From Pseudomonadales bacterium (GTDB lineage: Bacteria; Pseudomonadota; Gammaproteobacteria; Pseudomonadales; JAHRWD01): DNA of 64,000 bases. The stretch covers positions 326,812 to 390,811 of the forward strand of contig JARGPR010000001.1 of the NCBI GenBank assembly GCA_029210125.1, read 5' to 3'. A program made the position numbers and the translations under genes. A model generated the notes under the pieces. That model was not told where the DNA came from. It worked only from the letters and a program-made list of their open reading frames with translations, and made no database searches. Of this stretch, positions 6,357-29,540 are shown piece by piece (the first letter of the stretch is position 1; every line of letters begins with the position of its first letter).

Positions 6357-8078
6357 ATGATTGATATTGAATCCATACTGCAAAATAAATTCCCTCAAAT
6401 GAGCATAAGTAAAGGGTGGTTCTCCCGTTCATTGCTTTACTTGCTAAGAAAGGTATTGAGAGAGCAGCAAATTAATCAATTTATTGAGCAAAACAGCGGT
6501 GCTGAAGGCGTTGATTTTATCGACAAAATATTCGCGAAATTCAATATAGGTTATACGCTTTCCAGCCAGGATCGTCTGAAAATACCAGAAAGCGGTGCGT
6601 TACTCATAGTGGCTAATCACCCGATTGGATCCATGGATGGCCTGGCTCTTATGCGGCTTATTTCAGAAGTACGGCCAGATGTTAAAGTCGTTGTAAATGA
6701 TTTGCTTGCCTATATTGAACCACTGCGCCCAATGATGCTGCCGGTTGATAATATGGGGAATAATACCAGCAAGCATGATTTAAAGAAGTTATACAGGGCG
6801 ATAAAAAATAATGAAGCGCTAATTTTTTTCCCCGCCGGTGAGGTTTCTCGCATGAACCCGTCCGGTGTGCGTGATAGCAAGTGGAATAGTGGTTTTTTAA
6901 AGATAGCCCAGCGTTTTAACGCACCTGTTTTACCTGTTCATATCGGCACACGAAACTCCTGGCTATTCTACTTTCTATCAACACTCAACAAGAGTTTTGG
7001 AACACTCCTCCTGGTTCGGGAAATGTTCAATAAGCAAAATACGATTTTCCCTATAAAAATAGGCGATATTTACGGTGGCGATTTGATCGGTAAAAAAGAT
7101 AAAACAGAAGAGTTAAAAGTGAGTGAAATTCGCAGCTCCGTCTACCGGCTCAATAAGCGCTCAAGCAACAAAAAAACAAAACTTAACAATTCACCCAATA
7201 CGATTTATGCACTACCAGAAAGCAAAAAACAGTTAAAAAAAGAGCTGCTCGAATCCCAAAAGTTGGGTCAATTTCGTGATGGTAAACTCATTTATCTGTA
7301 CGATTATTTTGAAAACTCCGCAGTCATGAGAGAAATTGGCCGCCTGCGAGAGGTCACCTTTCGGGCGGTAGGCGAGGGTAGTGGTCGGTGCCGTGATCTG
7401 GATACTTATGACCGCTACTATCGGCACATTGTGTTGTGGGATGACAATGATCTTGAGATTGTCGGCTCGTACCGTATTGGTGAGTGCCAACCTATGGTAA
7501 CCAAAGGCGGGTTGGAAAGCCTGTATGTAGACTCGCTGTTTGAGCTAAATGATTCGTTTCTGCCCTATATAGAACAGGGCATTGAGTTAGGTCGAAGTTT
7601 CGTGCAACCGCAATATTGGGGCAAGCGTAGCCTGGATTACCTCTGGCATGGCATTGGCGCCTACCTGAGCCAATACCCAGAGGTGAAATATATGTTTGGT
7701 CCTGTTTCCATCTCTAATGATTATTCAGAGCAGGCTAAACAAAAACTGGTGCGCTTTTATGCAGGCTATTTTGAAGACCAAAACGGTTTAGCCACGGCTA
7801 GAAACCCCTATCCCATCACGGAAAAATGGAAACCGGGGAATGATTTCCGGGAAGATTTTGTGGCACTGAAATCAAGTTTGAAGCAGTTGGGTTACTCAGT
7901 CCCCACGTTATTCAAACAGTACACCGAAGTTTGTGAGCATGAAGGCGTGCGATTTATCGATTTCAATGTGGATGCTGATTTTGGAAATTGTGTGGATGGT
8001 TTAATTCTGGTGGAGGTGGATAAACTTAAACCCGCCTCAATTAAACGTTATATGAGTAATCGACTGGATGTAGCCTGA
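6357..8078 (+). CDS. Bifunctional lysolipid O-acyltransferase (PlsC-like) + GNAT N-acyltransferase (OlsB-like), OlsF-like aminolipid synthase candidate
   Basis: 573 aa. The N-terminal half carries NHPIGSMDG and FPAGEVSR acyltransferase blocks. The C-terminal half carries REVTFRAVGEG..YRHIVLWD, typical of OlsB/hemolysin-like GNATs. Confidence 0.55.
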   Translation: MIDIESILQNKFPQMSISKGWFSRSLLYLLRKVLREQQINQFIEQNSGAEGVDFIDKIFAKFNIGYTLSSQDRLKIPESGALLIVANHPIGSMDGLALMRLISEVRPDVKVVVNDLLAYIEPLRPMMLPVDNMGNNTSKHDLKKLYRAIKNNEALIFFPAGEVSRMNPSGVRDSKWNSGFLKIAQRFNAPVLPVHIGTRNSWLFYFLSTLNKSFGTLLLVREMFNKQNTIFPIKIGDIYGGDLIGKKDKTEELKVSEIRSSVYRLNKRSSNKKTKLNNSPNTIYALPESKKQLKKELLESQKLGQFRDGKLIYLYDYFENSAVMREIGRLREVTFRAVGEGSGRCRDLDTYDRYYRHIVLWDDNDLEIVGSYRIGECQPMVTKGGLESLYVDSLFELNDSFLPYIEQGIELGRSFVQPQYWGKRSLDYLWHGIGAYLSQYPEVKYMFGPVSISNDYSEQAKQKLVRFYAGYFEDQNGLATARNPYPITEKWKPGNDFREDFVALKSSLKQLGYSVPTLFKQYTEVCEHEGVRFIDFNVDADFGNCVDGLILVEVDKLKPASIKRYMSNRLDVA

Positions 8079-9812: not shown

Positions 9813-10149
9813 AGGTATAGATTCCTTTATTTGATTATCCCTGATATAGAAATGATTATGGGCTACGCGTTATTTATTGTTGTTATTAGCTAAATCCGGT
9901 GCCATCTCCCAGTACTTGAATGAGTACCTGGATATGCCTGCCAAAAGAATAAACACCCCATACTCAGATGTCCATACAGGCCATATTTGTATGTGCCGGG
10001 TATTGATCAAGGTCAATTTACGCAAATACTCGTGAGCTGCGTGATCTTGGGCTGGAGGCTCCCATCAGCCCGTTGCATAGTCCGACGCCTTGTTTTCCCT
10101 TACACTGGTTGGCCATCAAGCCCAAATAACAATAACAGGGAGTTACCCA

Positions 10150-10923
10150 ATGAGTGACGAACAACCGCTAATACTGACCCGTGAAGATCACCTCCTAACC
10201 ATAGAAATAAACCGGCCACCGGCCAATGCCATGAACCTGGCGGCATTCTGTGCGCTGGAAAAAGCGCTAGATGAAGCTGAAAACGAGCGCAACGTACGGG
10301 TGATTATTCTTACCGGCAGTGGCGTCAAAGGCTTTTCAGCGGGTATGGATCTGTCCGATCGATCCGGCGCTGATGTTGTCACCCTTAAAGCCCAGTCCGT
10401 CTGTAACCGGATCGAAGCGATGTCGAAACCCGTGATCGCAGCCATCAACGGCTACGCGCTGGGCGGCGGTTGTGAAATCGCAATCTCCTGTCACTATCGA
10501 TTTATGGTCGATGCAGAAAAAGCCATTATTGGCCTACCAGAAACAGAACTGGGCGTAATGCCTGTTTGGGGCGGAACCCAACGCCTGCCACGACTTGTCG
10601 GGCGCTCCAAAGCCACCGAGATGATCATCCTCAGTCAGCGCATTGGCGCACAGCAAGCTAGTAACATTGGTTTGGTAGACAAGGTATGTAGCCGCGAAAC
10701 ACTAATGTCAGACGTCCGCGAATTTGCAAATGCGCTAGCAGCACGGCCACCCCTGGCGGTTCAAGCCATAATGCGCTCCATTCACACCGGTATCAATCAA
10801 GGCATAGCTGCCGGACTACAACAGGAGCTAGATCAGGTCAAAACCCTCAGCGGAAGTAAAGATGCATTTGAAGGGAAAACCGCATTTTTCGAGAAAAGAA
10901 AACCGGTGTTTACTGGGGAATAG
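10150..10923 (+). CDS. Enoyl-CoA hydratase/isomerase (crotonase family)
   Basis: Crotonase blocks (FSAGMDL, INGYALGGGCE.A, E..LG..P..GGTQRL). AGGGAG lies 7 nt before the ATG at 10150. Confidence 0.85.
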   Translation: MSDEQPLILTREDHLLTIEINRPPANAMNLAAFCALEKALDEAENERNVRVIILTGSGVKGFSAGMDLSDRSGADVVTLKAQSVCNRIEAMSKPVIAAINGYALGGGCEIAISCHYRFMVDAEKAIIGLPETELGVMPVWGGTQRLPRLVGRSKATEMIILSQRIGAQQASNIGLVDKVCSRETLMSDVREFANALAARPPLAVQAIMRSIHTGINQGIAAGLQQELDQVKTLSGSKDAFEGKTAFFEKRKPVFTGE

Positions 10924-11208
10924 CGTATTCCTGGTTGGTGTGTTGCTCGATCCGGTGGGTGGTGGTTTATGGATTGGGATTATCGAGGCACTGGTTAGAT
11001 ACCGGGTTGTAAATATTCCCATATTTCGAGAGTTGGACTGACAGCAAACCACCAGAATGGTTATTCCATGTTTATATGTTTAATATCACAATACATGGAA
11101 AACCGATCCACCTATATCACCCCAATACGTGGAAAATCGTTTCCGCTTATTAACACTGTTATGAAAATAATATTTAAATTTACCAATATAATACTTAGGA
11201 GATATAAG

Positions 11209-11532
11209 ATGTTTAAAATTCGGACGTTATTAGGGGCTTGTGCATTGCTAGTTTCAAGTCATTCATTTGCTTGGGTTTCAGGAAGCGGAATGACAGTGGA
11301 GCAAGTGATGGTTCATGAAGAAGGTATTGGAAGAGATTACTTTGTCGCTTACTTCAAAAAAGACACAACAATATTCCGCTGTTACGTTAGCAATACTGAA
11401 ACTAGTACAATTTCTCTTATTTTGGCAATGCATATGTCAAAAACACCCGCCCAGGTTCATTGTCACGATAGCGATATGGCCATCGGGAGTTTCAGTGCTC
11501 ACAAACTTCATCGAATAATTACAAACATTTAG
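11209..11532 (+). CDS. Small secreted hypothetical protein
   Basis: AGGAG plus 8 nt precedes the ATG. Signal peptide MFKIRTLLGACALLVSSHSFA. First gene of the AT-rich islet. No family recognised. Confidence 0.4.
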   Translation: MFKIRTLLGACALLVSSHSFAWVSGSGMTVEQVMVHEEGIGRDYFVAYFKKDTTIFRCYVSNTETSTISLILAMHMSKTPAQVHCHDSDMAIGSFSAHKLHRIITNI

Positions 11533-11589
11533 TCTAATTTGCGTGGTATTCATAACAATGTGTTGCAAACGACATTTTCTGCTCCGCCG

Positions 11590-11790
11590 TTTTTGGTGTA
11601 TTCGCTTCGCTCAGTTTACACCAAAAAAAGCTCCACAAAAAATGCGTCTGAACACGGCGTTGAGGTGCGCTTCGTTCAACAGCGTCGGTACCCGAAAAAC
11701 AACAAGGGGTTCGAAGAGACCAACTGGAGTGTTATACCTAAAAAACAGGTACAACACTCCAGTTGGCACCTCAACGCCGGGCCGTTATGT
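11590..11790 (+). repeat. Highly structured non-coding element (three nested or adjacent inverted repeats)
   Basis: Three pairings: 11590-11600/11617-11627 (11 bp), 11655-11667/11767-11779 (13 bp, perfect), and 11720-11739/11747-11766 (20 bp, one mismatch, 7-nt loop). CATAAC (11551-56) and GTTATG (11784-89) bracket the element. Confidence 0.55.
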
Positions 11791-11805
11791 TTTCAAGGAG
11801 ATATC

Positions 11806-13551
11806 GTGCAAATAATCAAGAAGTCCCTTGATGTCTTTTTTGCAGGTGACATGCAGGTTGCGGTAGTGAAAGGGAAGTGGGGAGTCGGCAAAACGTATTT
11901 TTGGAATGCATACATTAAAGATTACATAAAGTCATCCCAATGTGAGCAAGTTGCATATAGCTACATATCTCTCTTTGGTAAAACAAGCCTTAAAGATGTA
12001 AAGCAATCTATTTTTCATTCGTCAAAGCCAATAAAGTCGGAAAGCGTAGTTGATGATAGTTTTGATAGCTCTTTTGAAGAAGAAAGCAAAATATTTAATC
12101 GCCTTCCGTGGATACGAGATGCTGTAGATAGGTCTAAAAGAAATGCACCACTTCTCAGTTGGCTAACTAAATTCTCAAAAGATGCCCCATTCTTGAAGCA
12201 ATACTCAACGCTTATTGCGTCCATGGAATATGGAATGGTTTGTAATTATGTGGTCTGTATAGATGACATTGAAAGGAAGAGTGAGGCACTTACAGTTAAA
12301 GAAGTCATGGGGCTGGTGGATGAGCTCGCCCAAAGAAAATCATGTAAGGTTATTCTCGTATTTAATGAGAAGTCACTTGATAGTGATAAAGACAAAGAAG
12401 ATTTCAACAAGTACAGAGAAAAGGTTGTAGATATAGAGCTTAACTACGATCCACCGTATGATGAGAATTTACAATGTGTAATTTCATCAGACTCGGCGTA
12501 TTACCTAAAAGTACTAGGGTTAACAAAAGAACTAAATATTAAAAATATACGTGTAATAAAGAAAATAAAGTGGGTTATTGATGAATTCTGGGGAATTGTA
12601 AAAGAACAAGAACAAAGGCTTATCGATGAATGGCTAACGCATGTTGTATTGTTTTGTTGGTCATACTATAAATCTGACGATGCTCTTCCTTTTGAGTTTA
12701 TTCAGGAACAGTTGCATGGAAATTCTTGGCTTTCGATATTGTCTGATGAAGAAAAGGAGGAAGATGAGAATACAAAAAAATATAAGTCAATTGCGACAAA
12801 CTTATCTCTTGGAAGTGCCATATATGATGAAGAGATTATAGCAATATTAAATCATGGTTTTTTCGATAAGGAAATGTTAAAAGAAAAAATATCCAAGATT
12901 TCTAGAGATATAGAATCTGATATTACAAGAGAGGCACTTTCCAAAGCATGGGATATCTATTCAGACTCATTTAAAGATAACCTTGAAGAATTCAAGTCAG
13001 AACTTCGAACTATAATAAATAGCGATATTGATAAAATAAACTTAAATGATTTTTCTTCTGCAATTGATGTGTTAGAGGAGTACGGAGAAGATGTAACGGA
13101 ATATATCGAAGAATACGTCAAAGTACATGTGGATACGCTAAAAAATATCGACCCAAGAGACTCTTGGGGCATAAGGAGAATTAGACACGCAGGTTTGATC
13201 GAAAAAATCGATAACTTACGAGAGCAATCAAAAAGCATGACTATCGACGAAGTCGCTTTAAAAATTGCCATAAATAGTGGATGGAACCCTGAAGATATTG
13301 AGTTCCTAGGATCATTGAGTATAGAAGATTATTTTAAATGGATGATGAGTGGTCCAGAGGATATAACCACAAAAATAAGAGGTGGCCTTCTAACATTTAG
13401 GAACCTCCAAACATCAAGCGAAGAAGATCGCATCAAATATGTAAGAATAACCACGAATGTCGTTGAGGCGCTTAAGAAAGTAGCAGCAACAAACGATCTT
13501 AATAGAAAGCGCGTCAAGTATATATATGAAGTGGACACAGAGAAAACATAA
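11806..13551 (+). CDS. KAP-family P-loop NTPase
   Basis: Walker A GKWGVGKTYFW and Walker B VVCIDDIERK fit the KAP pattern GxWGxGK[ST] / DDLDR. AGGAG plus 5 nt precedes the GTG at 11806. The upstream 267 nt of the track ORF is the structured repeat. Confidence 0.7.
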   Translation: MQIIKKSLDVFFAGDMQVAVVKGKWGVGKTYFWNAYIKDYIKSSQCEQVAYSYISLFGKTSLKDVKQSIFHSSKPIKSESVVDDSFDSSFEEESKIFNRLPWIRDAVDRSKRNAPLLSWLTKFSKDAPFLKQYSTLIASMEYGMVCNYVVCIDDIERKSEALTVKEVMGLVDELAQRKSCKVILVFNEKSLDSDKDKEDFNKYREKVVDIELNYDPPYDENLQCVISSDSAYYLKVLGLTKELNIKNIRVIKKIKWVIDEFWGIVKEQEQRLIDEWLTHVVLFCWSYYKSDDALPFEFIQEQLHGNSWLSILSDEEKEEDENTKKYKSIATNLSLGSAIYDEEIIAILNHGFFDKEMLKEKISKISRDIESDITREALSKAWDIYSDSFKDNLEEFKSELRTIINSDIDKINLNDFSSAIDVLEEYGEDVTEYIEEYVKVHVDTLKNIDPRDSWGIRRIRHAGLIEKIDNLREQSKSMTIDEVALKIAINSGWNPEDIEFLGSLSIEDYFKWMMSGPEDITTKIRGGLLTFRNLQTSSEEDRIKYVRITTNVVEALKKVAATNDLNRKRVKYIYEVDTEKT

Positions 13552-13632
13552 CTATTACATACACTCGGACAGTAAAAAGCGCCGCTCGTTCCTCGCTCTG
13601 CTTTTCACTGCCGGTGATGTAGAGCGTTAGTC
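13546..13632 (+). repeat. attC-like imperfect palindrome (candidate integron cassette recombination site)
   Basis: ACATAAC (contains the KAP stop codon), 4 nt, arm 13557-13580 pairing with 13600-13620 (20 bp, three 1-nt bulges all on the 5' arm), 5 nt, then GTTAGTC. Confidence 0.45.
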
Positions 13633-13653
13633 GGCGCATATAAAAAAAATACA

Positions 13654-14418
13654 ATGAATAGCATAATTTTTAAATACATGCCGTTTAGAGAAGAATTTTT
13701 TGAGAATCGATGGTTAAGGTTTACTCCTCGACTATCGCTTAATGATCCATTTGAAGTTAGGCCTTCATTTTCACAACATGCCGAATTTGTACACCGAGTA
13801 AATGGATATGGTGATTCTGTTGAATCTGTGATTCAAGAAATGGAAAGAAATCAATGCCTAGTATTAAAGGGTATCGCGATTCAGGACTTCGATATTTATG
13901 GCATTCTTTCGCTGACGGAGAAAAATGACAATCTGCTAATGTGGTCGCACTATGCAAGCGAACATGCCGGAATGGTGATTGGGTTTGATTCTAACCATGA
14001 TTTCTTTGATGCTACAAAGTCTGAAAACCAATATTTGAGAGAATGCGCAAATGAATACATCGGTGTACTAAAAAGAGTAAAGTATTCGAAATATCGTAAT
14101 ATGTCCGGTCGTTCTCTAAATGAATACTTTTACCTAAAGTCGAATGATTGGTGGACCGAGCGAGAAATACGGTATGTGCTTCCTATTGCAGAGGCAGATG
14201 AAATAATACATACAGAAAATAACGAGACTATGGCATTCTATGTTGTTCCTCCAGACGCAATAGTTTCAATTACTTTGGGTATGCGGATGGAAGGAAAGTC
14301 AGCGGAATTGGTGAAAAGAATCATAAGAGATAGGTGTGAGCTATCTCACATTAAAATTTTTCAAACGAAAATGTGTAATGAAACATTTAACCTGGTCGTT
14401 GAGTCAATTCAGGCTTAG
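13654..14418 (+). CDS. DUF2971-family protein
   Basis: 254 aa. IFKYMPF..LRFT....LNDPFE, LMWSHYA..HAGMVIGF and W..EREIRY match the DUF2971 pattern as remembered. Confidence 0.6.
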   Translation: MNSIIFKYMPFREEFFENRWLRFTPRLSLNDPFEVRPSFSQHAEFVHRVNGYGDSVESVIQEMERNQCLVLKGIAIQDFDIYGILSLTEKNDNLLMWSHYASEHAGMVIGFDSNHDFFDATKSENQYLRECANEYIGVLKRVKYSKYRNMSGRSLNEYFYLKSNDWWTEREIRYVLPIAEADEIIHTENNETMAFYVVPPDAIVSITLGMRMEGKSAELVKRIIRDRCELSHIKIFQTKMCNETFNLVVESIQA

Positions 14419-14559
14419 TATCAAGTTTGAAGAAAAATGAGGTCAGGTCTTTCCATGCCACATTAGCTATGGTGTTTAGCCTAATGGGCGCTCCTAAGAT
14501 ATAGAGTATTTAGGCATAACAAAGCGGCTTCAGGCCGACAGTTTTTACGCGAGTGAAAC

Positions 14560-14901
14560 ATGAAAATCGTAAATATCGAAAATTCAGAACATTATAAATG
14601 GGGCGAAGACTCTGATGGTTGGCACCTACTTAAATCTGATGGTTTGAGCATTATTGAAGAAAATGTGCATCCTAATGAGAAAGAGGAACGACATTACCAT
14701 AATGATTCGCAGCAGTTCTTTTATGTATTGTCAGGTGTTGCCCACCTTGAAATGTCGGGTGATATATTTAAGGTTAGTGCTGGTAGTGGCATCCACGTTC
14801 CAAGAAAAAAGCCTCACCAATTAATGAATAATGGCACCGTGAACTTACGTTTCTTAGTTATATCTCAGCCAAAAAGTCATGGCGATAGAGTAAACGTATA
14901 A
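14560..14901 (+). CDS. Cupin-domain protein
   Basis: 113 aa. Metal-binding motif region E.HYH...Q.FYVLSG and P...PHQL.N. The stop TAA lies inside GTATAAC. Confidence 0.7.
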   Translation: MKIVNIENSEHYKWGEDSDGWHLLKSDGLSIIEENVHPNEKEERHYHNDSQQFFYVLSGVAHLEMSGDIFKVSAGSGIHVPRKKPHQLMNNGTVNLRFLVISQPKSHGDRVNV

Positions 14902-14939
14902 CAAGCGACAGTGATTTAAAACAACCCATTTCCCTGCAA

Positions 14940-15195
14940 TTATTGATTCATTTGCCACTCCTGTTTGTTGCGAACCATTGTGTTTAATATCGTTTTTTGT
15001 GCGATGGGCTTCTTGAAGAATTCATCAAATTAAACCTAACAGACGCCACACCTCCAAAACCCGCTGAGCGGCGCGTTATTCTTCTCATCAGCGTGGCTAC
15101 CAAATGCTATCGCATTCCAGTTAGCTACAGCATGTAACGTTTCAGAGGTGCTTTCTCTGAGCGACCGCTTTCCCAGACCGTACAGGCTTGATATG
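14940..15195 (-). mobile_element. IS110-family transposase 3' remnant (decayed, with stops)
   Basis: The reverse strand reads ..FDEFFKKPIAQKTILNTMVRNKQEWQMNQ*. This is colinear with the C-terminus of the IS110 copy at 28.3-29.3 kb (..TILNKMVRNDQEWQMNH). Weaker ESG..R..YM similarity lies further upstream. Confidence 0.55.
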
Positions 15196-15296
15196 AGCCG
15201 AACGATGGCTTAATCAATCCACTACGGTTGCCCTTGCCTTGGGAGTGATTTAACCTTTTCACAAATACTCAATCTAATAACAATAAGGAGATGTAT

Positions 15297-16487
15297 ATGG
15301 ATATTGCTTATAACCCGGAATATGAAGCGTTTAGAGTTGAAGTGCAGCGGTTTCTCGAAGAGAACAAAAGCAAAGCACCGGCGGGGCATCGCGGTCGCGG
15401 TAGGCCCACGGCTGAAGAGCAGGCCTGGCAGCAACTGTTGATCAAACATGGTTATGCCGCACGTACCATACCTAAGGAATACGGTGGCTATGGCGCTGAA
15501 CCGGATATTCTTAAAAGCCATATCATCGCTGAAGAGTTCGCAATTGCAGGGGTAAAACCAGGTCATAATGGCGATGACCGTTTGGTGCCAGTTGTGCTTG
15601 AAATTGGTACCGAGGAGCAAAAGAAGGCTCTAATTGGGCCTACTATTCGGGGCGAAATGATGTGGTGTCAGGGCTATTCAGAACCTGGCTCCGGTTCTGA
15701 TTTAGCATCCCTTTCAACCAAAGGTGTGCTGGAAGGGGATCAGTGGGTGATCAATGGCCAGAAAATCTGGACCTCCGGTGCGCAACATGCGGACATGTGT
15801 TTTTGTCTGGTTAGAACAGAACCCGACGCGCCCAAGCACCAGGGTATCAGCTACCTTATTTTTCCGATGGATACACCGGGTATTGAAGTACGCCCACTGG
15901 TCACTATGACCGGCGAAGCGATTTTTAACGAAACATTTTTTACCGACGTGCGTATACCTGCGGATGGCATCATTGGAAAACGTGGTGAAGGGTGGTTTGT
16001 GGCGAACGCAACACTCAAGCATGAGCGCGGTAGTTTGGGTGATCCAAACCAGACCGAGCGTCGTTTCCGTTTGCTTGTTGATCTGATGAAAAATGAAAAG
16101 GTCGACGGCACACCATTAATCGAAATTCCAAGTTACCGTGATCGGCTATTACGATTGCAGGCCCGTGTATTCTCCATGAAATATAACGGCATGCGAATTC
16201 TCACCGCCTACGCAAAGGATGAGGAGCCAGGGTTGCCACGCTGGATCGTAAAGCTGCAGGGCTGCGAATTGAATCACCAGCTATCTGCACTGGCAATTGA
16301 TGCAATGGGCGAGCTGGGTGTGTTGTATGAAGACAGCCCCTATCTGCGCGATGAAGGGATGTGGCAACAAACCTACATGCTTGATCTTGGCTTGATCATT
16401 GGCGGTGGCACCGCGCAAATTCAAAAAAATATGATTGGTGAGCGGGCCCTCGGGTTACCTAAAGAACCAAAATACACACAGAATTAA
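15297..16487 (+). CDS. Acyl-CoA dehydrogenase family protein (candidate alpha subunit of a heteromeric ACAD)
   Basis: ACAD blocks (WCQGYSEPGSGSD, W.I.G.K.WTSGA). The C-terminal IIGGGTAQIQKNMIGERAL has G where MCAD-type enzymes carry the catalytic Glu. Confidence 0.85.
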   Translation: MDIAYNPEYEAFRVEVQRFLEENKSKAPAGHRGRGRPTAEEQAWQQLLIKHGYAARTIPKEYGGYGAEPDILKSHIIAEEFAIAGVKPGHNGDDRLVPVVLEIGTEEQKKALIGPTIRGEMMWCQGYSEPGSGSDLASLSTKGVLEGDQWVINGQKIWTSGAQHADMCFCLVRTEPDAPKHQGISYLIFPMDTPGIEVRPLVTMTGEAIFNETFFTDVRIPADGIIGKRGEGWFVANATLKHERGSLGDPNQTERRFRLLVDLMKNEKVDGTPLIEIPSYRDRLLRLQARVFSMKYNGMRILTAYAKDEEPGLPRWIVKLQGCELNHQLSALAIDAMGELGVLYEDSPYLRDEGMWQQTYMLDLGLIIGGGTAQIQKNMIGERALGLPKEPKYTQN

Positions 16488-16499
16488 GGAGGCGTTGTC

Positions 16500-17585
16500 A
16501 TGGAATTTTCATTAAGCGAAGAGCAAGTAATGTTGCAGGACAGCATCCGCCGGTATTTGGAGAGCAGCTGTTCATTGAACGAAGTACGTCAGGCCGTGGC
16601 CGACGGCATCACCCAACAAACCGATGTTTGGCAGGGAATTAGCGATTTGGGTATTTTGGGGATTATTATTCCCGAAGAGCTCGGTGGAGTAGGGCTGGGA
16701 TTTTTGGAGGCTGCACTGGTAGCCGAAGTGTTGGGCCGGGCCGTTGCTCCGGTACCCTTTATTGGCTCGGCGATTATGGCTCCCGTAGCGCTGTTAGCCG
16801 CAGGCGATGATCGTCAAAAAGAGACCTGGTTACCAAAAATTGCGGATGGCACAACGGTTTTTGGTGTTGGTGTGACGGAGCAAATTGGCCGTAGGGAAAC
16901 CGATGGCATTTTCTATTCTGGCGGCACTATCACCGGTAAAGCGATGTTCGTGGTGGATGGCGTCGACGCCGATATGCTGATCATTGCTGACGACGCCAGT
17001 ACTCTACATATTGTTGATGCCAACGCTTCTGGTGTTACTCGACAAAAACTAAAAACCATCGATAAAACCCGATCGGTAGCGGAAATTGTTTTCGAGTCTG
17101 TGGAAGCTGATCCGCTACCCGGCTCAAAAGGCAATCAAGAAGCGCTGCAGCAAACCATTAATGTTGGTCGCATCATGTTATCCGCCGATAGCCTTGGTGC
17201 ATCGGAAGTGATGATTGAACAAGCGGTGGCTTACGCAAAAGAACGCAAACAGTTTGACCGGGTGATTGGTTCATTCCAGGCCGTTAAACATATGTGCTCC
17301 GAAATGGCCGCAGAACTTGAGCCTTGTCGCTCATTGGTCTGGTACGCAGCCCATTCGGTTAACGATATGCCGGATGATACCCAGCTCATGGCATGTCACG
17401 CCAAAGCACACCTGTCAGAAATTGGTCGTTTTGTTGCAAAAACCGCCACAGAGGTCCACGGTGGTATGGGTTTTACCGATCTACTGGGTCTGCATTACTG
17501 GTTCAAGCGTATTGGTTTGGATCGCCAGTTACTGGGTTCGCCTGAACTGGTTCGTGAAGAGGCAGCGCTGGCGCAAGGCTGGTAA
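16500..17585 (+). CDS. Acyl-CoA dehydrogenase family protein (candidate beta subunit)
   Basis: 361 aa. ACAD fold motifs (FQAVKH, EVHGGMGFT). Starts 12 nt after the previous ACAD. The YEGT catalytic block is replaced by LLGSP. Confidence 0.8.
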   Translation: MEFSLSEEQVMLQDSIRRYLESSCSLNEVRQAVADGITQQTDVWQGISDLGILGIIIPEELGGVGLGFLEAALVAEVLGRAVAPVPFIGSAIMAPVALLAAGDDRQKETWLPKIADGTTVFGVGVTEQIGRRETDGIFYSGGTITGKAMFVVDGVDADMLIIADDASTLHIVDANASGVTRQKLKTIDKTRSVAEIVFESVEADPLPGSKGNQEALQQTINVGRIMLSADSLGASEVMIEQAVAYAKERKQFDRVIGSFQAVKHMCSEMAAELEPCRSLVWYAAHSVNDMPDDTQLMACHAKAHLSEIGRFVAKTATEVHGGMGFTDLLGLHYWFKRIGLDRQLLGSPELVREEAALAQGW

Positions 17586-23904: not shown

Positions 23905-25062
23905 ATGTATTGGAATTCATTAGATAAGAATGATACAAATTTGTACAAAGGGATCGCGATATTAATGATCGCTACGCATAATTTTATGCATCTATTTCCA
24001 GCGCCAAAGGAAAATGAGTTCGAGTTTAACCCAAATAGGTTTTTTGATCTGTTGTACCTAGTAATAAATGAAAGTGAAAATATCCTCAGGGTTTTTCTTT
24101 CATTTTTTGGCCATTTTGGTGTTCAAATCTTCATATTTTTGAGCGCCTATGGATTCACAAAAAAGTACCTTAACCGCCAACCAAACTATTGGCTGTTTAT
24201 ATGGAAAAGAATATTCAAAATATACCCGGCATTTATTCTGGGTATATTAGCTTGGGCAATTGCCGCTGGCTGGGTGAATGGAAACCACGGTATCCTTGGG
24301 CCTATAAAAATCATATATTGGGATATCGGTGATTTGTTATTAAAACTATCGCTTACGTCAAATTTTATTTCAGGTAAATCTCTTTCGATCGTCGGTCCCT
24401 GGTGGTTTATACCCTTCATTTTTCAGTTCTATTTTATCTTTCCTCTACTTCGGTATCTCTATTCTAAGTGGGGGGCGCCGATACTGTTGGCGATATCTGT
24501 TGCGGGTATAGTGATCACTTATCTGAATCACGGAAGAATCGGCGACTTGAATATTTACTTTACTGTTCTTGGACATCTCCCTGAATTTTGTTTAGGTATT
24601 TATCTGGCAGGTAAAGAAGGTGAAAAAATAAAAATATCCTGGACGATAATATTAGCGGCCCTTGTTTTATATTTTTTGGGTAATATTTATGAATCATTTT
24701 GGTACGTTAATCATATTAGCTTTCTTATTCTGCTCCTAGTTGTGTTTAATTCTGTAATTGGATCAGTCAAAAAACGTGCAAGGATCAACAAATCGATTTT
24801 GTTTATAGGTGGGATATCAATGCCGATATTTCTTGTAAATGGATTTCTTAGGTATCCATTTATATACTGGGCGGTTAACAATAATCACTGGCTATTGACT
24901 ATTGCTCTATGCCTATTGTCACTCACAATTTCAATACTTGTGGGATATATTTTGTCAAAAATTGAAGGGTATGTAATGCCAAAAATTGACTACGAGACAC
25001 CAAAATCACTTATTAATCAGGTGATGGGTGTTTTATCCTTTGCGCGCGGTAATGGTAAATGA
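23905..25062 (+). CDS. Membrane acyltransferase family 3 (OafA/O-acetyltransferase-like)
   Basis: 385 aa, about 10 TM helices. N-terminal YKGIAILMIATHNF resembles the acyltransferase_3 R/K-x-D-x-L-K-G-IAI..V...H block. AT-rich. Confidence 0.7.
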   Translation: MYWNSLDKNDTNLYKGIAILMIATHNFMHLFPAPKENEFEFNPNRFFDLLYLVINESENILRVFLSFFGHFGVQIFIFLSAYGFTKKYLNRQPNYWLFIWKRIFKIYPAFILGILAWAIAAGWVNGNHGILGPIKIIYWDIGDLLLKLSLTSNFISGKSLSIVGPWWFIPFIFQFYFIFPLLRYLYSKWGAPILLAISVAGIVITYLNHGRIGDLNIYFTVLGHLPEFCLGIYLAGKEGEKIKISWTIILAALVLYFLGNIYESFWYVNHISFLILLLVVFNSVIGSVKKRARINKSILFIGGISMPIFLVNGFLRYPFIYWAVNNNHWLLTIALCLLSLTISILVGYILSKIEGYVMPKIDYETPKSLINQVMGVLSFARGNGK

Positions 25063-25171
25063 CGCGAAATCTGAAGTATTGGGTGGCAATTTATGCTATT
25101 TCGGGAGTAATAATGACCATAAAACTGCTGACCAATTTTTATGTTTGGGCTGAACTTAGGGGACTTTTTGC

Positions 25172-26596
25172 ATGCCAAAAATAAAAGCGACCTATTTGCC
25201 TGCGATCATCTTAGTTGAGATGATTTTATTTAACTTGGACAAATTTGAATATTCCTTCCTTAAAGCGTCACTTCATGTGGTGCTTCAATCAGTTCTTGTC
25301 TATGGCTTATTGTTAATTTCTAGTAAGTGGTTGATGCTGAGAGCGTTGATTTCACTTTTTGTTGCTTCGGCATTATTTATTCAGTTGACTTATGGCGCGG
25401 GGTTATCGGTAAGTATTTTTATAAGTATGTTGGAATCATCACCTAGTGAATCATTTGCTTTTGTAATAAGCAATCTGCTCCCTACATTGTTTGCGGTAAT
25501 CTGCCTGCTATCAATGATATTTTTGTACGTACCCAATACAAAAAAGGTGACCGCTGGAGCTTTGTCTGTTGGTCTTTGCTATTTGATCGTGCCAACCATT
25601 CTATTCAGTCAAACGCTATATTCAACGCCGGAATATGATCTTTTTCGCAGGTCAGGTATAGCACGGGGGCATCCGAGCTGGTTCACCTCTATAGAGTACT
25701 TTATAGAAGACCTCTCCCACAGGTTTCCTCCTTTGATTACTATTAGAGGTATAACGGATACGATTTCCTTTATGACTACACAACAAAATGTGAAGTCAAC
25801 ATGGACAGCTGTATCACATATAGGCTCATCTGATCTTTTGGTATTGGGTATCGGTGAATCACTAAGGGCAGATAATATGGGGGTATATGGATATAAATAT
25901 GACACCACACCAGCTTTGTCCCGGCTGTCGGACTCCATCGATCTCTATACTCGCGCATATTCCGCAGGTACAACCACATGGAGCTCTGTACCATCGGTAC
26001 TGACGAAGGCTGCATCTGTTCCTGATTTTTCCAAATCGATTTTAAACCTTGCCAAGGATGCAGGATTTGAAACGTTTTGGCTTTCAAATAATACCAAGCA
26101 CTCCGAATGGGATTTTTCTGTTTCTGCGTTAGCAGAACAAGCTGACCATATCTATTTTTCATCAGATCATAGTACGGAAAATAGATATGATTCCATTTTG
26201 ATTTCAAAGCTTTCGGAAGCGCTGGCAACGCCCAGTAGTGAAAAAAAGAAATTGATTATATTGAATTTCTTTGGTTCTCATTTTAATTTTGTAGATCGCT
26301 ATCCGGAAGATTACGCTAAGTTCGAAGGGGGTAATTTGAAACTGGATCGATACAATAACACAGTGCTTTATACAGATTACATTCAAGCGGAAGTTATAAA
26401 GCTCGTTGAAAAATACGGCGGAAAGTATCTATTTTTCTCTGATCATGGGCTGATCCACCCGGAAAGCGACACACCGCTAAAACACGACGTTCGACGCGAT
26501 CCTGATATCGACTCGGTAAAGGTTCCTTTCTTTGTGTACCCGAAAACTAAATTGAGTATCCAGGTTGATGATGTGATCTCGCTCTATTATTTTTAG
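25172..26596 (+). CDS. Phosphoethanolamine transferase (EptA/sulfatase family), possibly fragmented
   Basis: N-terminal TM region followed by a sulfatase domain (LVLGIGESLRADNMGVYGY..TTP.L, FFSDHG). See the finding on flanking in-frame and out-of-frame pieces. Confidence 0.65.
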   Translation: MPKIKATYLPAIILVEMILFNLDKFEYSFLKASLHVVLQSVLVYGLLLISSKWLMLRALISLFVASALFIQLTYGAGLSVSIFISMLESSPSESFAFVISNLLPTLFAVICLLSMIFLYVPNTKKVTAGALSVGLCYLIVPTILFSQTLYSTPEYDLFRRSGIARGHPSWFTSIEYFIEDLSHRFPPLITIRGITDTISFMTTQQNVKSTWTAVSHIGSSDLLVLGIGESLRADNMGVYGYKYDTTPALSRLSDSIDLYTRAYSAGTTTWSSVPSVLTKAASVPDFSKSILNLAKDAGFETFWLSNNTKHSEWDFSVSALAEQADHIYFSSDHSTENRYDSILISKLSEALATPSSEKKKLIILNFFGSHFNFVDRYPEDYAKFEGGNLKLDRYNNTVLYTDYIQAEVIKLVEKYGGKYLFFSDHGLIHPESDTPLKHDVRRDPDIDSVKVPFFVYPKTKLSIQVDDVISLYYF

Positions 26597-26790: not shown

Positions 26791-27156
26791 TGATCTTGCC
26801 CCAATAGAACGAAAACATGAAATTTCATGCAGCTAATCGCTTATATTTCGTCGGTGAACAATACCCGATCCCTGAATGCAGCCGCTTTCGATAGTAAAAA
26901 TCATTAATATAACGAGCTAAAACATACTTCAGTTCTTCGCGTGATTGAAAGTGGATTCCTCGGACTAATCCCGCCTTTAAGGTGTGGAAGAAGGATTCCA
27001 TATGCGCCTTGTCGGTACATTTACTGAGTCAGACGGGCTACGCGTTTTAACTTTGAATTCATTGGAGTACAGCCAGGCCTTTCTAGGTTTTGTGTATTTA
27101 GGCATGGGACGCCTCATCAGTTAGATATGGGTGTCCGCGTGAAGCGGGGCAAGTCA
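26791..27156 (-). mobile_element. IS3-family (IS407-like) internally deleted remnant with both inverted repeats
   Basis: IRs are TGATCTTGCCCC (26791) and TGACTTGCCCC (reverse complement at 27156). OrfA start MPKYTKPRKAWLYSNEFKVK is fused to the OrfB end CTDKAHMESFFHTLKAG..RLHSGIGYCSP. A 4-bp TAGC duplication flanks it. Confidence 0.7.
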
Positions 27157-27266: not shown

Positions 27267-27354
27267 GCATAACGCCGCCATCAGCCGAATATTTGTAGTG
27301 TATGAGCAAAGCTAAGTAGCGATTGATTTGTCGGCTGCATGGTATTTGTTAGGA
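27267..27354 (-). repeat. attC-like imperfect palindrome downstream of the LysE gene
   Basis: The minus strand reads TCCTAAC (contains the LysE stop), 5 nt, CCATGCAGCCGA, 42 nt, TCGGCTGATGG, 4 nt, GTTATGC. The extra G is on the 5' arm. Confidence 0.4.
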
Positions 27355-27969
27355 CTTAAATGCTACGTAGCTTCCGACGCCTACCATAAGACCACCGGCT
27401 ATTTTTTGAGGGGCAGTACCAATTATTTTCTGCTGCATATACAAAGCAAATTTTGATGCAAAAGCAGCGTATAGAATTTTGACAGAGCCAACACTTACAA
27501 CGGTAATAGCAACTACTAGCCCGTAATCAAATGGGGAGGCAGAACTGAAGTCAATGAAAAATGGGAAAAGGCTAGCGTAGAAAACTATTGCTTTTATATC
27601 GCCAAGAGTCAGAAAAAATCCTGTGGAGAAGCTGACCAGAAGACCTCTTTTCCCTTGATCGATTTCTTGTAAGAAAAGTTGTTTGCCTTTTGCTTTTAGT
27701 AGTGCAAGCCCAAGCCATATCAAGTAAAGACCACCAGCTATTTTTAGGATAGTAAAAAAGCCACCCATTAGCCCAGCTACGGCTTCAAGGCCGAGTATAA
27801 CCAGTAGTACGAATAGCAAGTCACCCAATACGACTCCAATTGATACAGCGATACCGTTTGAAACACCGGCTGTCGCTGAGCGAGCGACAACAAGCGCCAC
27901 ACTTGAACTCGGCAACGCTGCCAAACTGACCATAACTGCAAACAGCGTCAGTGCTTGTAGGAAACTCAT
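27349..27969 (-). CDS. LysE/RhtB-family amino-acid exporter
   Basis: 206 aa, 6 TM helices, with the LysE-type N-terminus (..PGP equivalent region) and overall pattern. Confidence 0.75.
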   Translation of the reverse strand: MSFLQALTLFAVMVSLAALPSSSVALVVARSATAGVSNGIAVSIGVVLGDLLFVLLVILGLEAVAGLMGGFFTILKIAGGLYLIWLGLALLKAKGKQLFLQEIDQGKRGLLVSFSTGFFLTLGDIKAIVFYASLFPFFIDFSSASPFDYGLVVAITVVSVGSVKILYAAFASKFALYMQQKIIGTAPQKIAGGLMVGVGSYVAFKS

Positions 27970-28265: not shown

Positions 28266-29257
28266 TTAACAAGCGAGGGCGTCATTTTTTAACACTTGAA
28301 AGAGCGTCAAGCTCGAATGTAGCAAGGGTGAGATATGAATACAACTACCGTAACTAGCTTCAGAAACCAGGAAACACACATCGGTATAGATGTTGGAAAA
28401 TGATGTTTGGATGCCTCGGTTTTTGAGCTCGATTTACTTTGAAGGGAAGGGAATAACCCGGAGGGGGGCTGAACGCTTAATAACGGCTTTAAGGCGCTAT
28501 AAGCTCACGCGCGTATTGGTTGAAGCTACCGGTGACATTGTCTAACCGATCCAGGTGGGGCAATTTGCAAAAGCCCAGGGCATACTCGCTAAAACGGACA
28601 ACGTTGATGCAAGATTTATTGCGATGTTTGGCAAAGTCCTTCAGCTTGATGATCGCGTGTTACCCGATAAGAAAATAGGACTTCTTAGAGACTTGGTTGC
28701 CAGAAAACGGCAGTTGAATGAAAACAGAACGCAACAAGCGCCAACATAAAGCCCCCCCAAATGTGCTAGCGGCTTCTAACAGACGCCTGCTTTAGCTACT
28801 TGATAAAGAAGTTGCGTGGATTAACGGCAACTGGCGATAAGAATCGCCGAGGTCACCGAGTGCAACGAACCTATCAAATACTCAGTTCTGTTCCAGGTAT
28901 TGGTGATGGTGTTGCATTCACATTATTGGGTGAGCTACCCAAACTGGGAAAGCTATCCAATCGTAAAGTGGCGGCGCTGCGTGGTCTAGCCCCCCTTTGA
29001 TCGCGACAGCGGTCAAATGAAAGGAAAGCGGCGTATCAAAGGAGGCAGACCACCCATACGAACAATACTGTATTTGGCGATGCTCTTTGCTATACAGCAC
29101 AACTCAGTCATGAAGAGGTTTTTTATGAAAAATTCGTAGCTCAGGGTAAGCACAAAAAAGTAGCTATCACCACCTGCATGAGAAAGATGATGACGATCTT
29201 AAATAAGATGGTTCGCAACGATCAGGAATGGCAAATGAATCACAGTCGCTTGTATAC
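28266..29257 (+). mobile_element. IS110-family insertion sequence, transposase degraded by stops and frameshifts
   Basis: From the ATG at 28335: MNTTTVTSFRNQETHIGIDVGK*.. Later frames give QFAKAQGILAKTDNVDARFIAMFG, SSVPGIGDGVAFTLLGELP and TILNKMVRNDQEWQ. Inverted TTAACAAGCGA / TCGCTTGTATA flank it. Confidence 0.7.
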
Positions 29258-29540
29258 CGTTAATCTGCCGATTCATCATTGTCCTATGGGGATAGCGCTG
29301 GCTTGCTTCTGGTTTAGCCTATCCTATATTGGCCTGAAACTGGAGTTTGATATTTAACTGTTGCTCTATTTATGGTATAAAGCCCGCCCTTGAAGCCGCC
29401 TCGTCTGGTGGTCTTAAGGAAAACCAACGTCGCGTACAGATCGTCACGTCATCTTGGGTGCTCAATACCTTATATGGTTATTGGGTTGGGTGATGGGGTT
29501 TGTACAAGATTTTAACCCTAACTAAAAATAGGAAGTTTGC

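Follow-up and report, generated by a model that had tools for sequence, protein, structure and literature searches.

An AT-rich islet in a Pseudomonadales catabolic cluster is probably a short integron cassette array with independent KAP NTPase and DUF2971 defence candidates

Between an enoyl-CoA hydratase gene and an acyl-CoA dehydrogenase gene of an uncultured Pseudomonadales bacterium lies an AT-rich islet that we analysed within 64,000 nucleotides of contig JARGPR010000001.1 (assembly GCA_029210125.1, forward strand, 326,812 to 390,811); this whole stretch is referred to as the window, and all positions are counted from its first letter. A reading of the letters without database searches, hereafter the original prediction, had described four open reading frames (ORFs) in the islet, all on the plus strand and encoding a small secreted protein, a KAP P-loop NTPase, a DUF2971 protein and a cupin, and our searches agree with the strand and the families as described. 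From left to right, the islet consists of the gene for the small secreted protein and an attC site, a 125-bp palindromic unit, the KAP gene and an attC site, the DUF2971 gene, whose attC site is lost, and the cupin gene with the end of an IS110 element. The features are as follows.

10090-10923, plus strand: enoyl-CoA hydratase, host gene of the left flank (Pfam ECH_1, E 2e-59)
10924-11158, plus strand: left junction, with normal base composition to ~11050 and AT-rich beyond
11159-11659, plus strand: cassette 1, small secreted-type protein and attC site, left boundary putative
11660-11784, plus strand: ORF-less 125-bp unit, a long imperfect palindrome with R''-like core GTTCAAC (11674) and R' core GTTATGT (11784-11790)
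11785-13626, plus strand: cassette 3, KAP-type P-loop NTPase and attC site, 1842 bp, homologous to other loci from GTT to GTT
13627-14432, plus strand: cassette 4, DUF2971 protein, ~0.8 kb, own attC site missing, with only CAAGTT left after the stop codon
14433-14901, plus strand: cupin segment with ORF 14560-14901 (113 aa, Cupin_2 E 8e-17)
14887-15175, minus strand: 3' end of an IS110-family remnant, from collinear blastn matches to the pseudogene at 28330-29270
15240-15296, plus strand: residual native hydratase-dehydrogenase spacer with the dehydrogenase ribosome-binding site, aligned by eye to a 68-bp spacer in a relative and too diverged for a base-exact junction
15297-16487, plus strand: acyl-CoA dehydrogenase, host gene of the right flank (Pfam Acyl-CoA_dh N, M and C domains)
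16500-17585: second acyl-CoA dehydrogenase of the right flank
28330-29270, plus strand: frameshifted IS110-family transposase pseudogene (PF02371 E 1e-9, PF01548 E 7e-7)

The islet departs from its surroundings in base composition. Guanine-plus-cytosine (GC) content in 500-bp windows is 0.31-0.42 across 11001-15000 and 0.45-0.52 in the flanking windows, the islet as a whole (10924-15290) has a GC content of 0.382 vs 0.456 across the 64 kb, and third-position GC is 0.32-0.34 in the four islet genes vs 0.44-0.51 in 14 flanking and core genes. Computation thus agrees with the drop that had been seen by eye between the hydratase and the dehydrogenase. The accompanying expectation of deviant codon usage did not hold: by codon-usage log-likelihood the islet genes are not separable from core genes, and only GC and third-position GC separate them. 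To look for the site without the islet, relatives were scanned with the dehydrogenase protein, one genome per species, which returned sequences of at most 85% identity, all from Pseudomonadales metagenome-assembled genomes, and in nine of these (L001-L009) the two dehydrogenase orthologues are adjacent. In one of them, L003, whose flank proteins are 80-92% identical to those of the window, the hydratase orthologue (91% identical) stands directly upstream of the dehydrogenase gene, with 68 bp from the stop of one to the start of the other, and acyl-CoA synthetase, Baeyer-Villiger monooxygenase, hydratase and both dehydrogenase genes are contiguous. The synthetase and monooxygenase genes of the window lie further left of the hydratase, and the final ~50 bp before its dehydrogenase start are still similar to the L003 spacer. 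Because L003 represents the empty site and residual spacer precedes the dehydrogenase, we place an insertion of ~4.3 kb just 3' of the hydratase stop. The original prediction had called the islet an acquired module, had taken its flanks for one split functional cluster and had proposed a search for an empty site in relatives; such a site exists in L003, where the same genes are contiguous, and together with the deviant GC and third-position GC it supports the view that the islet is acquired DNA splitting one catabolic cluster. A metagenome scan with the hydratase protein for variants of the site gave only relatives of at most 54% identity, and a look-up with the dehydrogenase protein gave only a contig identical to the window.

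An integron cassette is one promoterless gene with an attC site, an imperfect palindrome that folds as a single strand and is cut between G and TT of GTTRRRY. Such a site is expected to carry an R'' core RYYYAAC and an R' core GTTRRRY around a palindrome of ~55-140 nt, with extrahelical bases on the R''-L'' arm only. The KAP gene lies in a unit of this kind. Its ORF (11806-13551; 581 aa; Pfam KAP_NTPase, PF07693, E 8e-9, 35.5 bits vs a cut-off of 20) is followed by an 87-nt attC site at 13546-13632, in which the R'' core ACATAAC overlaps the stop codon and the R' core is GTTAGTC. KAP genes of 86-90% identity occur in three metagenome contigs with differing surroundings (L081, L082 and L083); at the DNA level the unit is 88% identical to them, with homology starting at 11783 and ending at 13629 (13552 in L082). 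CGTTATG at the 5' boundary and ACATAAC...CGTTA at the 3' boundary are common to the four contexts, and the DNA beyond these sequences is unrelated; the R' core of the 125-bp unit is the exact start of the KAP cassette homology in all four. Two other genes of L081 are followed by sites with 82-84% identity to the KAP attC site itself, and a 50%-identical KAP homologue of Shewanella algae has a 72-nt attC site directly 3'. Because homology breaks at GTT cores and the unit comprises one gene with a 3' block that recurs after other genes, we identify it as an integron gene cassette.

The DUF2971 gene (ORF 13654-14418; 254 aa; Pfam PF11185, E 2e-6, 29.7 bits vs a cut-off of 22) begins a second unit at such a boundary. 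This unit has 96% DNA identity to contigs L084 and L085 from 13624 (GTT at 13626) to 14417, so that the cassette starts at 13627, and L085 is a textbook five-cassette array in which the DUF2971 gene is followed by a 117-nt attC site, GCCTAAC...GTTATGA. Homology therefore breaks at G|TT at both ends of the KAP unit in its four contexts and at the 5' end only of the DUF2971 unit. An exact-protein look-up returned no record for the DUF2971 protein. More generally, the genes of L081, L083, L084 and L085 form co-oriented arrays with a canonical attC site behind each gene, and a scan for AAC...GTT hairpins found canonical sites after nearly every gene in these four contigs; in the window the same scan found just the spacer before the KAP gene and one terminator.

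As an independent test of the islet sites, we built a covariance model (R1) on 11 attC sites, all of them outside the window, in L081 and L083-L085; the MAFFT alignment of the sites was inconsistent in the inner stem, and R1 therefore uses 14 outer pairs only. Run on the window with filters off, R1 gave 59.2 bits at 13546-13632 (E 2e-10) and 26.4 bits at 11550-11665 (E 0.002), a third match of 22.3 bits at 27354-27267, and nothing else above 14 bits. Both islet matches are on the plus strand just 3' of ORFs, and they lie 2 kb apart. Across 723 kb of unrelated loci the model returned no match at E <= 10, and in 83 kb of relatives with filters off it gave at most 10 bits; it found new sites in the loci of the Shewanella algae and Alcanivorax xiamenensis homologues. 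The two islet sites, of 87 and 116 nt, have the layout of attC, with cores that in neither case fit the consensus at every position. In constrained single-strand folds of the bottom strand, every predicted single-base bulge falls on the 3' arm, with three at the KAP attC site and two at 11550-11665, a polarity that agrees with the gene orientation at both sites. An Rfam scan of 10-16 kb gave one chance-level match only.

The site at 11550-11665 (R'' TCATAAC, R' GTTGAGG) belongs to cassette 1, whose ORF (11209-11532) encodes 107 aa with a hydrophobic, signal-like N-terminus and has no family match in the profile libraries searched. The whole spacer before the KAP gene (11533-11805) forms a large branched hairpin, and the fold of 11645-11790 has a free energy of -41 kcal/mol (z -8.8 vs shuffled sequence). 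Structured non-coding spacers had been predicted throughout the islet; this holds strongly before the KAP gene and moderately after it (13552-13653, z -2.4 and -2.8 for the two strands), and fails before the cupin gene, where the spacer 14419-14559 is not significantly structured (z -0.7). In the 125-bp unit, GTTCAAC at 11674 fits RYYYAAC perfectly, and the unit probably, though with less certainty than the sites above, represents a second attC site or an empty cassette. Left of cassette 1, the junction holds two 17-nt direct repeats, at 11089-11105 (CAATACATGGAAAACCG) and 11123-11139 (CAATACGTGGAAAATCG), 34 bp apart, followed by TTATTAAC-ACT-GTTATGA with the core, read by eye, at 11158-11164. 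The layout of 11089-11164 resembles an attI site, which we regard as putative: the junction has no homologue in any fetched locus or in plasmids, a plasmid DNA search with 10924-11810 gave no match, and the fold is not significant against shuffled sequence.

At the right end, the cupin gene is full length (its homologues also have 113 aa and the same C-terminus) and is preceded by a small terminator-like hairpin at 14525-14537. Contigs L092 and L093, from a close relative, share 14433-15400 with the window at 90% identity, and there the upstream genes encode a lipoprotein and a Sel1-like protein in place of DUF2971. In four further loci (L088-L091) the cupin gene overlaps a GFA gene, and the model detected no attC site at these cupin loci. 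We considered an attC site after the cupin gene (GTATAAC, 14896) and rejected it, its downstream 'arm' being the coding end of the IS110 transposase and GTATAACAAG starting the overlapping GFA gene in L088-L091; a short attC site at 15034-15081 was likewise rejected, its fold being no better than shuffled. The IS110 remnant aligns on the minus strand, at 14887-14993, with the 3' end of the pseudogene, most strongly at 14944-14993 (86% over 50 nt, E 3e-11), with weaker collinear segments to ~15173, and it is conserved in L092 and L093. The right edge had been called an IS110-family remnant, and this stands indirectly: the stitched remnant alone has no Pfam match, and the family assignment comes by DNA match to the pseudogene with its PF02371 and PF01548 domains. 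We treat the cupin gene and the decayed IS110 fragment as the fixed distal end of the locus, for which cassette status is not supported. A constant distal end and a variable hydratase side are consistent with what integron dynamics predict, in the one comparison available (L092/L093).

A complete integron comprises the integrase gene intI, an attI site and a Pc promoter; in the window intI is absent, and the attI-like layout is read by eye only. A cluster of attC sites lacking integron integrases (CALIN) is defined by a minimum of two attC sites spaced by less than 4 kb, with no integrase in the neighbourhood. The two islet sites recognised by R1 are 2 kb apart. Because no IntI-like sequence was found in the window and core genes flank the array on either side, we assign the islet to this class. 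A recombinase near the KAP gene in L081 was rejected as an integron integrase at 26.6 bits vs the TIGR02249 cut-off of 265. Taken together, we consider it likely that the islet is a short integron cassette array without a nearby integrase, seated in the hydratase-dehydrogenase spacer, and that KAP and DUF2971 are independent candidates within it. The original prediction had offered "cassette island" as one of two labels, and the attC sites and GTT boundaries bear that label out.

Both proteins fall into catalogued families of putative defence genes. The KAP protein matches the PADLOC family PDC-S49 (PDLC05031, E 1e-25; PDLC05029, E 8e-18; PDLC05030, E 2e-10; from a library without curated cut-offs) and phrog_4740 (E 7e-72), and the DUF2971 protein matches PDC-S31 (PDLC04990, E 5e-28) and phrog_1762 (E 2e-48), which makes their proposed candidacy as defence genes reasonable. 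A suggested link of the KAP gene to Tiamat fell away: only PDC-S49 models match it at E <= 0.1 in the PADLOC library, which presumably includes models for Tiamat and tmn. The KAP motifs are intact (Walker A GKWGVGKT, Walker B CIDD), and G23, G26, G28, K29, T30, D153 and D154 do not vary among 60 homologues. Members of the KAP family typically have transmembrane helices inserted into their NTPase domain. In the islet protein we found no membrane helices (Kyte-Doolittle hydropathy over 19 residues peaks at 1.25, at the Walker B strand) and no signal peptide, and its structure model (predicted local distance difference test score, pLDDT, 86) has an AAA+/ORC-like domain and an all-helical C-terminal half, with soluble helices where the membrane helices of the family would sit. 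The DUF2971 protein, also without signal peptide or membrane segment, gives a confident model (pLDDT 91), and its residues N30, D31, H99, Y100, E169, E171 and R173 are invariant in 62 sequences. No transferase family emerged for it from profile searching against solved structures or among its weak Pfam matches, and among Foldseek matches the ADP-ribosyltransferases CteC, heat-labile toxin and Tpt1 appear only at E > 0.1. In other arrays the KAP gene has GmrSD restriction, OLD-family nuclease, type I restriction-modification and AbiTii genes as neighbours, and the DUF2971 gene elsewhere neighbours Hachiman, SIR2-HerA and Abi_C genes. In published work, a single-gene KAP defence system requires both the Walker B motif and a C-terminal region of unknown function (10.1101/2025.10.07.681051), Aristaios is a single-gene DUF2971 abortive-infection system of Lactococcus (PMC11381338), DUF2971 has been assigned to the DarT/AbiGi-like ADP-ribosyltransferases (PMC12522546), and integron cassettes, those of integrase-less arrays included, are rich in compact defence systems (10.1101/2024.07.02.601686; 10.1101/2024.07.02.601719).

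We considered whether the islet might instead be an ordinary horizontally acquired defence island, brought in through IS110 or homologous recombination, with hairpins that are terminators or host repeats. The IS110 remnant at the right edge would suit such an origin, as would the DUF2971 homologues in L086 and L087, which sit within defence islands with no attC site detected, and the spacer 14419-14559 with its small terminator-like hairpin only. Yet the arms of the islet hairpins recur nowhere else in the 64 kb, which excludes host repeats, homology breaks exactly at GTT cores, the attC model is specific, and the IS remnant is in the conserved distal part common to L092 and L093 rather than in the variable part, so that we regard this explanation as very unlikely. 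A different proposal, made in the original prediction, was that the KAP and DUF2971 genes act as an undescribed two-gene defence pair, the NTPase sensing infection and controlling a DUF2971 effector. The genes are adjacent and co-oriented in the window, sensor-plus-effector pairs are common in defence systems, and the same arrangement occurs in the sequencing-run contig L174, but L174 is 100% identical to the window. A complete attC site and a recombination core (GTT at 13626) lie between the two genes, which are separate mobile units with their own boundaries. In L081, L082 and L083 the close KAP homologues (86-90%) stand beside other genes, as do more distant ones in L176/L177 and in the phage-plasmid locus L175, and so do the DUF2971 homologues (65-94%) of L084/L085, L086, L087 and L178; tblastn found neither partner within 8-10 kb in these contexts, and none of about ten other independent contexts holds both genes, which answers the suggested test of co-occurrence in the negative. 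The families are moreover catalogued as separate single-gene PADLOC candidates, and a DUF2971 protein works alone in Lactococcus (PMC11381338). As judged from these gene contexts, the two-gene reading is largely refuted and we hold it to be exceedingly improbable.

It is harder to dismiss that the array is real and the two genes are not anti-phage, the DUF2971 protein being, for example, a toxin against bacteria or hosts and the KAP protein an unrelated nucleotide-dependent regulator; we consider this possible, though on the unlikely side. The PDC families of PADLOC are 'phage defence candidates' and candidates only (PMC11514479), ~18% of DUF2971 proteins are predicted secreted effectors (PMC12522546), no recognisable effector domain was found in the KAP protein, and most integron cassettes are of unknown function. 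Conversely, neither islet protein has a signal peptide or membrane segment, the homologues keep company with restriction, abortive-infection, Hachiman and SIR2-HerA genes, and both families occur in phage genomes and phage-plasmids, as is typical of defence genes. Several results count against our own interpretation of the islet as a cassette array with two defence candidates. R1 detects just two attC sites in it and misses the strongest palindrome (11660-11790), a palindrome with an ambiguous 5' core; an attC site is missing from the DUF2971 unit in the window, the DNA switching after CAAGTT, at 14433, to the cupin/IS110/dehydrogenase block; the cupin segment was not borne out as a cassette; and the left boundary of the array, GTTATGA at 11158, is a by-eye reading with no comparator sequence. 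The absence of an integrase comes from a tblastn search of the 64 kb with an approximate IntI1 query, which gave no match at E <= 10; the same query detects an ordinary tyrosine recombinase in L087 (5e-6). For the proteins, a structure search with the KAP C-terminal half gave no informative match, no Foldseek match of the DUF2971 model among solved or viral structures reached E <= 0.001, and PDC-S49 and PDC-S31 are still candidate families only.

Under the cassette-array interpretation, the cassettes would have been delivered, and perhaps would still be exchanged, by an integron integrase encoded elsewhere, and they would be transcribed by read-through from the co-oriented hydratase gene. KAP and DUF2971 would then be two independent single-gene anti-phage candidates. 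For the proteins themselves we infer that the KAP protein may be a soluble nucleotide-driven switch with a conserved all-helical C-terminal half, and that the DUF2971 protein may be a toxin that resembles ADP-ribosyltransferases of the DarT/AbiGi type and halts the infected cell. A bolder version, which we put forward as doubtful, is that the KAP cassette without membrane helices is a single-gene anti-phage system with a new all-helical output domain, present on cassettes and phage-plasmids, in an array that is still exchanging through a distant integrase and is expressed from the catabolic promoter.

Like known CALINs, the islet combines two or more attC sites of the same orientation in a stretch of 4 kb with single promoterless genes in between, adjoins a transposase remnant and is without a nearby integrase; it differs from them in being very short (three or four units), in lying inside a co-oriented catabolic cluster and in ending with a unit without attC. 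With the defence cassettes of sedentary chromosomal and mobile integrons it shares compact single-gene candidates and the occurrence of the same cassette in several arrays beside GmrSD and an OLD-family nuclease, whereas the islet has neither an integrase nor a large array and is known from sequence alone; the text of 10.1101/2024.07.02.601686 and 10.1101/2024.07.02.601719 makes no mention of KAP or DUF2971. The islet KAP protein shares a KAP-type P-loop and intact Walker A and B motifs with PDC-S49/EF_KAP, PifA, Tiamat and tmn, and a long C-terminal region comes after the P-loop, as in EF_KAP (10.1101/2025.10.07.681051). EF_KAP and the classical KAP proteins have membrane helices and the islet protein has none, and it is set apart from Tiamat and tmn by matching PDC-S49 only. 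The DUF2971 protein resembles Aristaios/PDC-S31 in its Pfam domain, its single-gene organization and the conserved H-Y...E-x-E, and an ADP-ribosyltransferase-like fold has been reported for the family; Aristaios differs in having 316 aa and residing on a Gram-positive plasmid, a comparison made by description only. Finally, the IS1111-attC group, which targets attC sites (PMC11187229), offers a parallel to the DEDD-type IS110/IS1111 superfamily element found beside cassettes in two places in the window. Membership of the window copies in this group is not supported: the IS110 transposase stop lies ~30-60 nt from the element end, so that, in contrast to IS1111, the long non-coding region does not follow the gene, and the junction sequence may be a GFA-gene stump rather than attC.

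Several further observations concern these elements and their relatives. The frameshifted IS110 pseudogene has ~370 nt of non-coding DNA upstream that could hold its guide RNA. The flanks of both IS110 copies (14893-14916 and 29239-29266) are alike, with AACG(G)TATA(A)CAA and then GCGAC(A/T)GTGATT, which is consistent with sequence-programmed target choice; the flank in the islet may be the stump of the GFA gene that overlaps the cupin gene in L088-L091. In L081 (2133-13727) and L083 (7995-13326), GmrSD type IV restriction, KAP and several unknown genes each have a canonical attC site 3', and by this layout the two stretches are cassette arrays largely of defence genes. Full-length KAP homologues of 32% identity occur in L175 (E. 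coli O104:H4 plasmid p09EL50, 5001-6695) and in ~120 other plasmid records; these plasmids are non-mobilizable, from E. coli and Klebsiella, of ~110 kb and equipped with tail-fibre, DnaB and ligase genes, and they look like phage-plasmids. The plasmid KAP homologue adjoins a GNAT/DUF1778 toxin-antitoxin pair. In L178 (Alcanivorax xiamenensis), which has a DUF2971 gene of 65% identity, R1 found, a few kb 3' of that gene, three attC sites after consecutive genes at 11464-13980, a probable chromosomal cassette array, and these sites adjoin a SIR2-HerA pair.

Elsewhere in the window, a LysE-type translocator gene on the minus strand (27349-27969; PF01810, E 9e-27) is directly followed by the attC-like site at 27354-27267 (22.3 bits, E 0.015), and gene and site resemble a solitary cassette separate from the islet, with a fragment of an IS3 integrase (26825-27001) beside it. 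A gene for a two-domain acyltransferase (6357-8078; GC 0.43, below its neighbours) stands between the acyl-CoA synthetase and monooxygenase genes and is not at that place in L003; it is probably another insertion in the same cluster. A second AT-rich stretch (23905-26596, GC 0.34-0.40) encodes an Acyl_transf_3 protein and a member of the sulfatase family and probably represents a variable region for modification of the cell envelope.

The locus is a small new example of a known phenomenon, defence cassettes in integron arrays, with peculiarities of its own: it lies inside a co-oriented catabolic cluster, its KAP protein is without membrane helices, and close relatives differ on the hydratase side. 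It illustrates at base resolution how, in uncultured marine Pseudomonadales, genes that are candidates for defence move as individual integron cassettes, and it cautions that neighbouring 'conflict' genes are not to be called a system before their recombination boundaries have been checked. Two compact candidate cassettes are nominated, KAP with 1842 bp and DUF2971 with ~0.8 kb; because the C-terminal half of the KAP protein has no known fold relative, a positive phage assay for KAP would open a new mechanism. That the array sits within a catabolic cluster of the same orientation is a minor oddity, with a bearing on the expression of integrase-less arrays.

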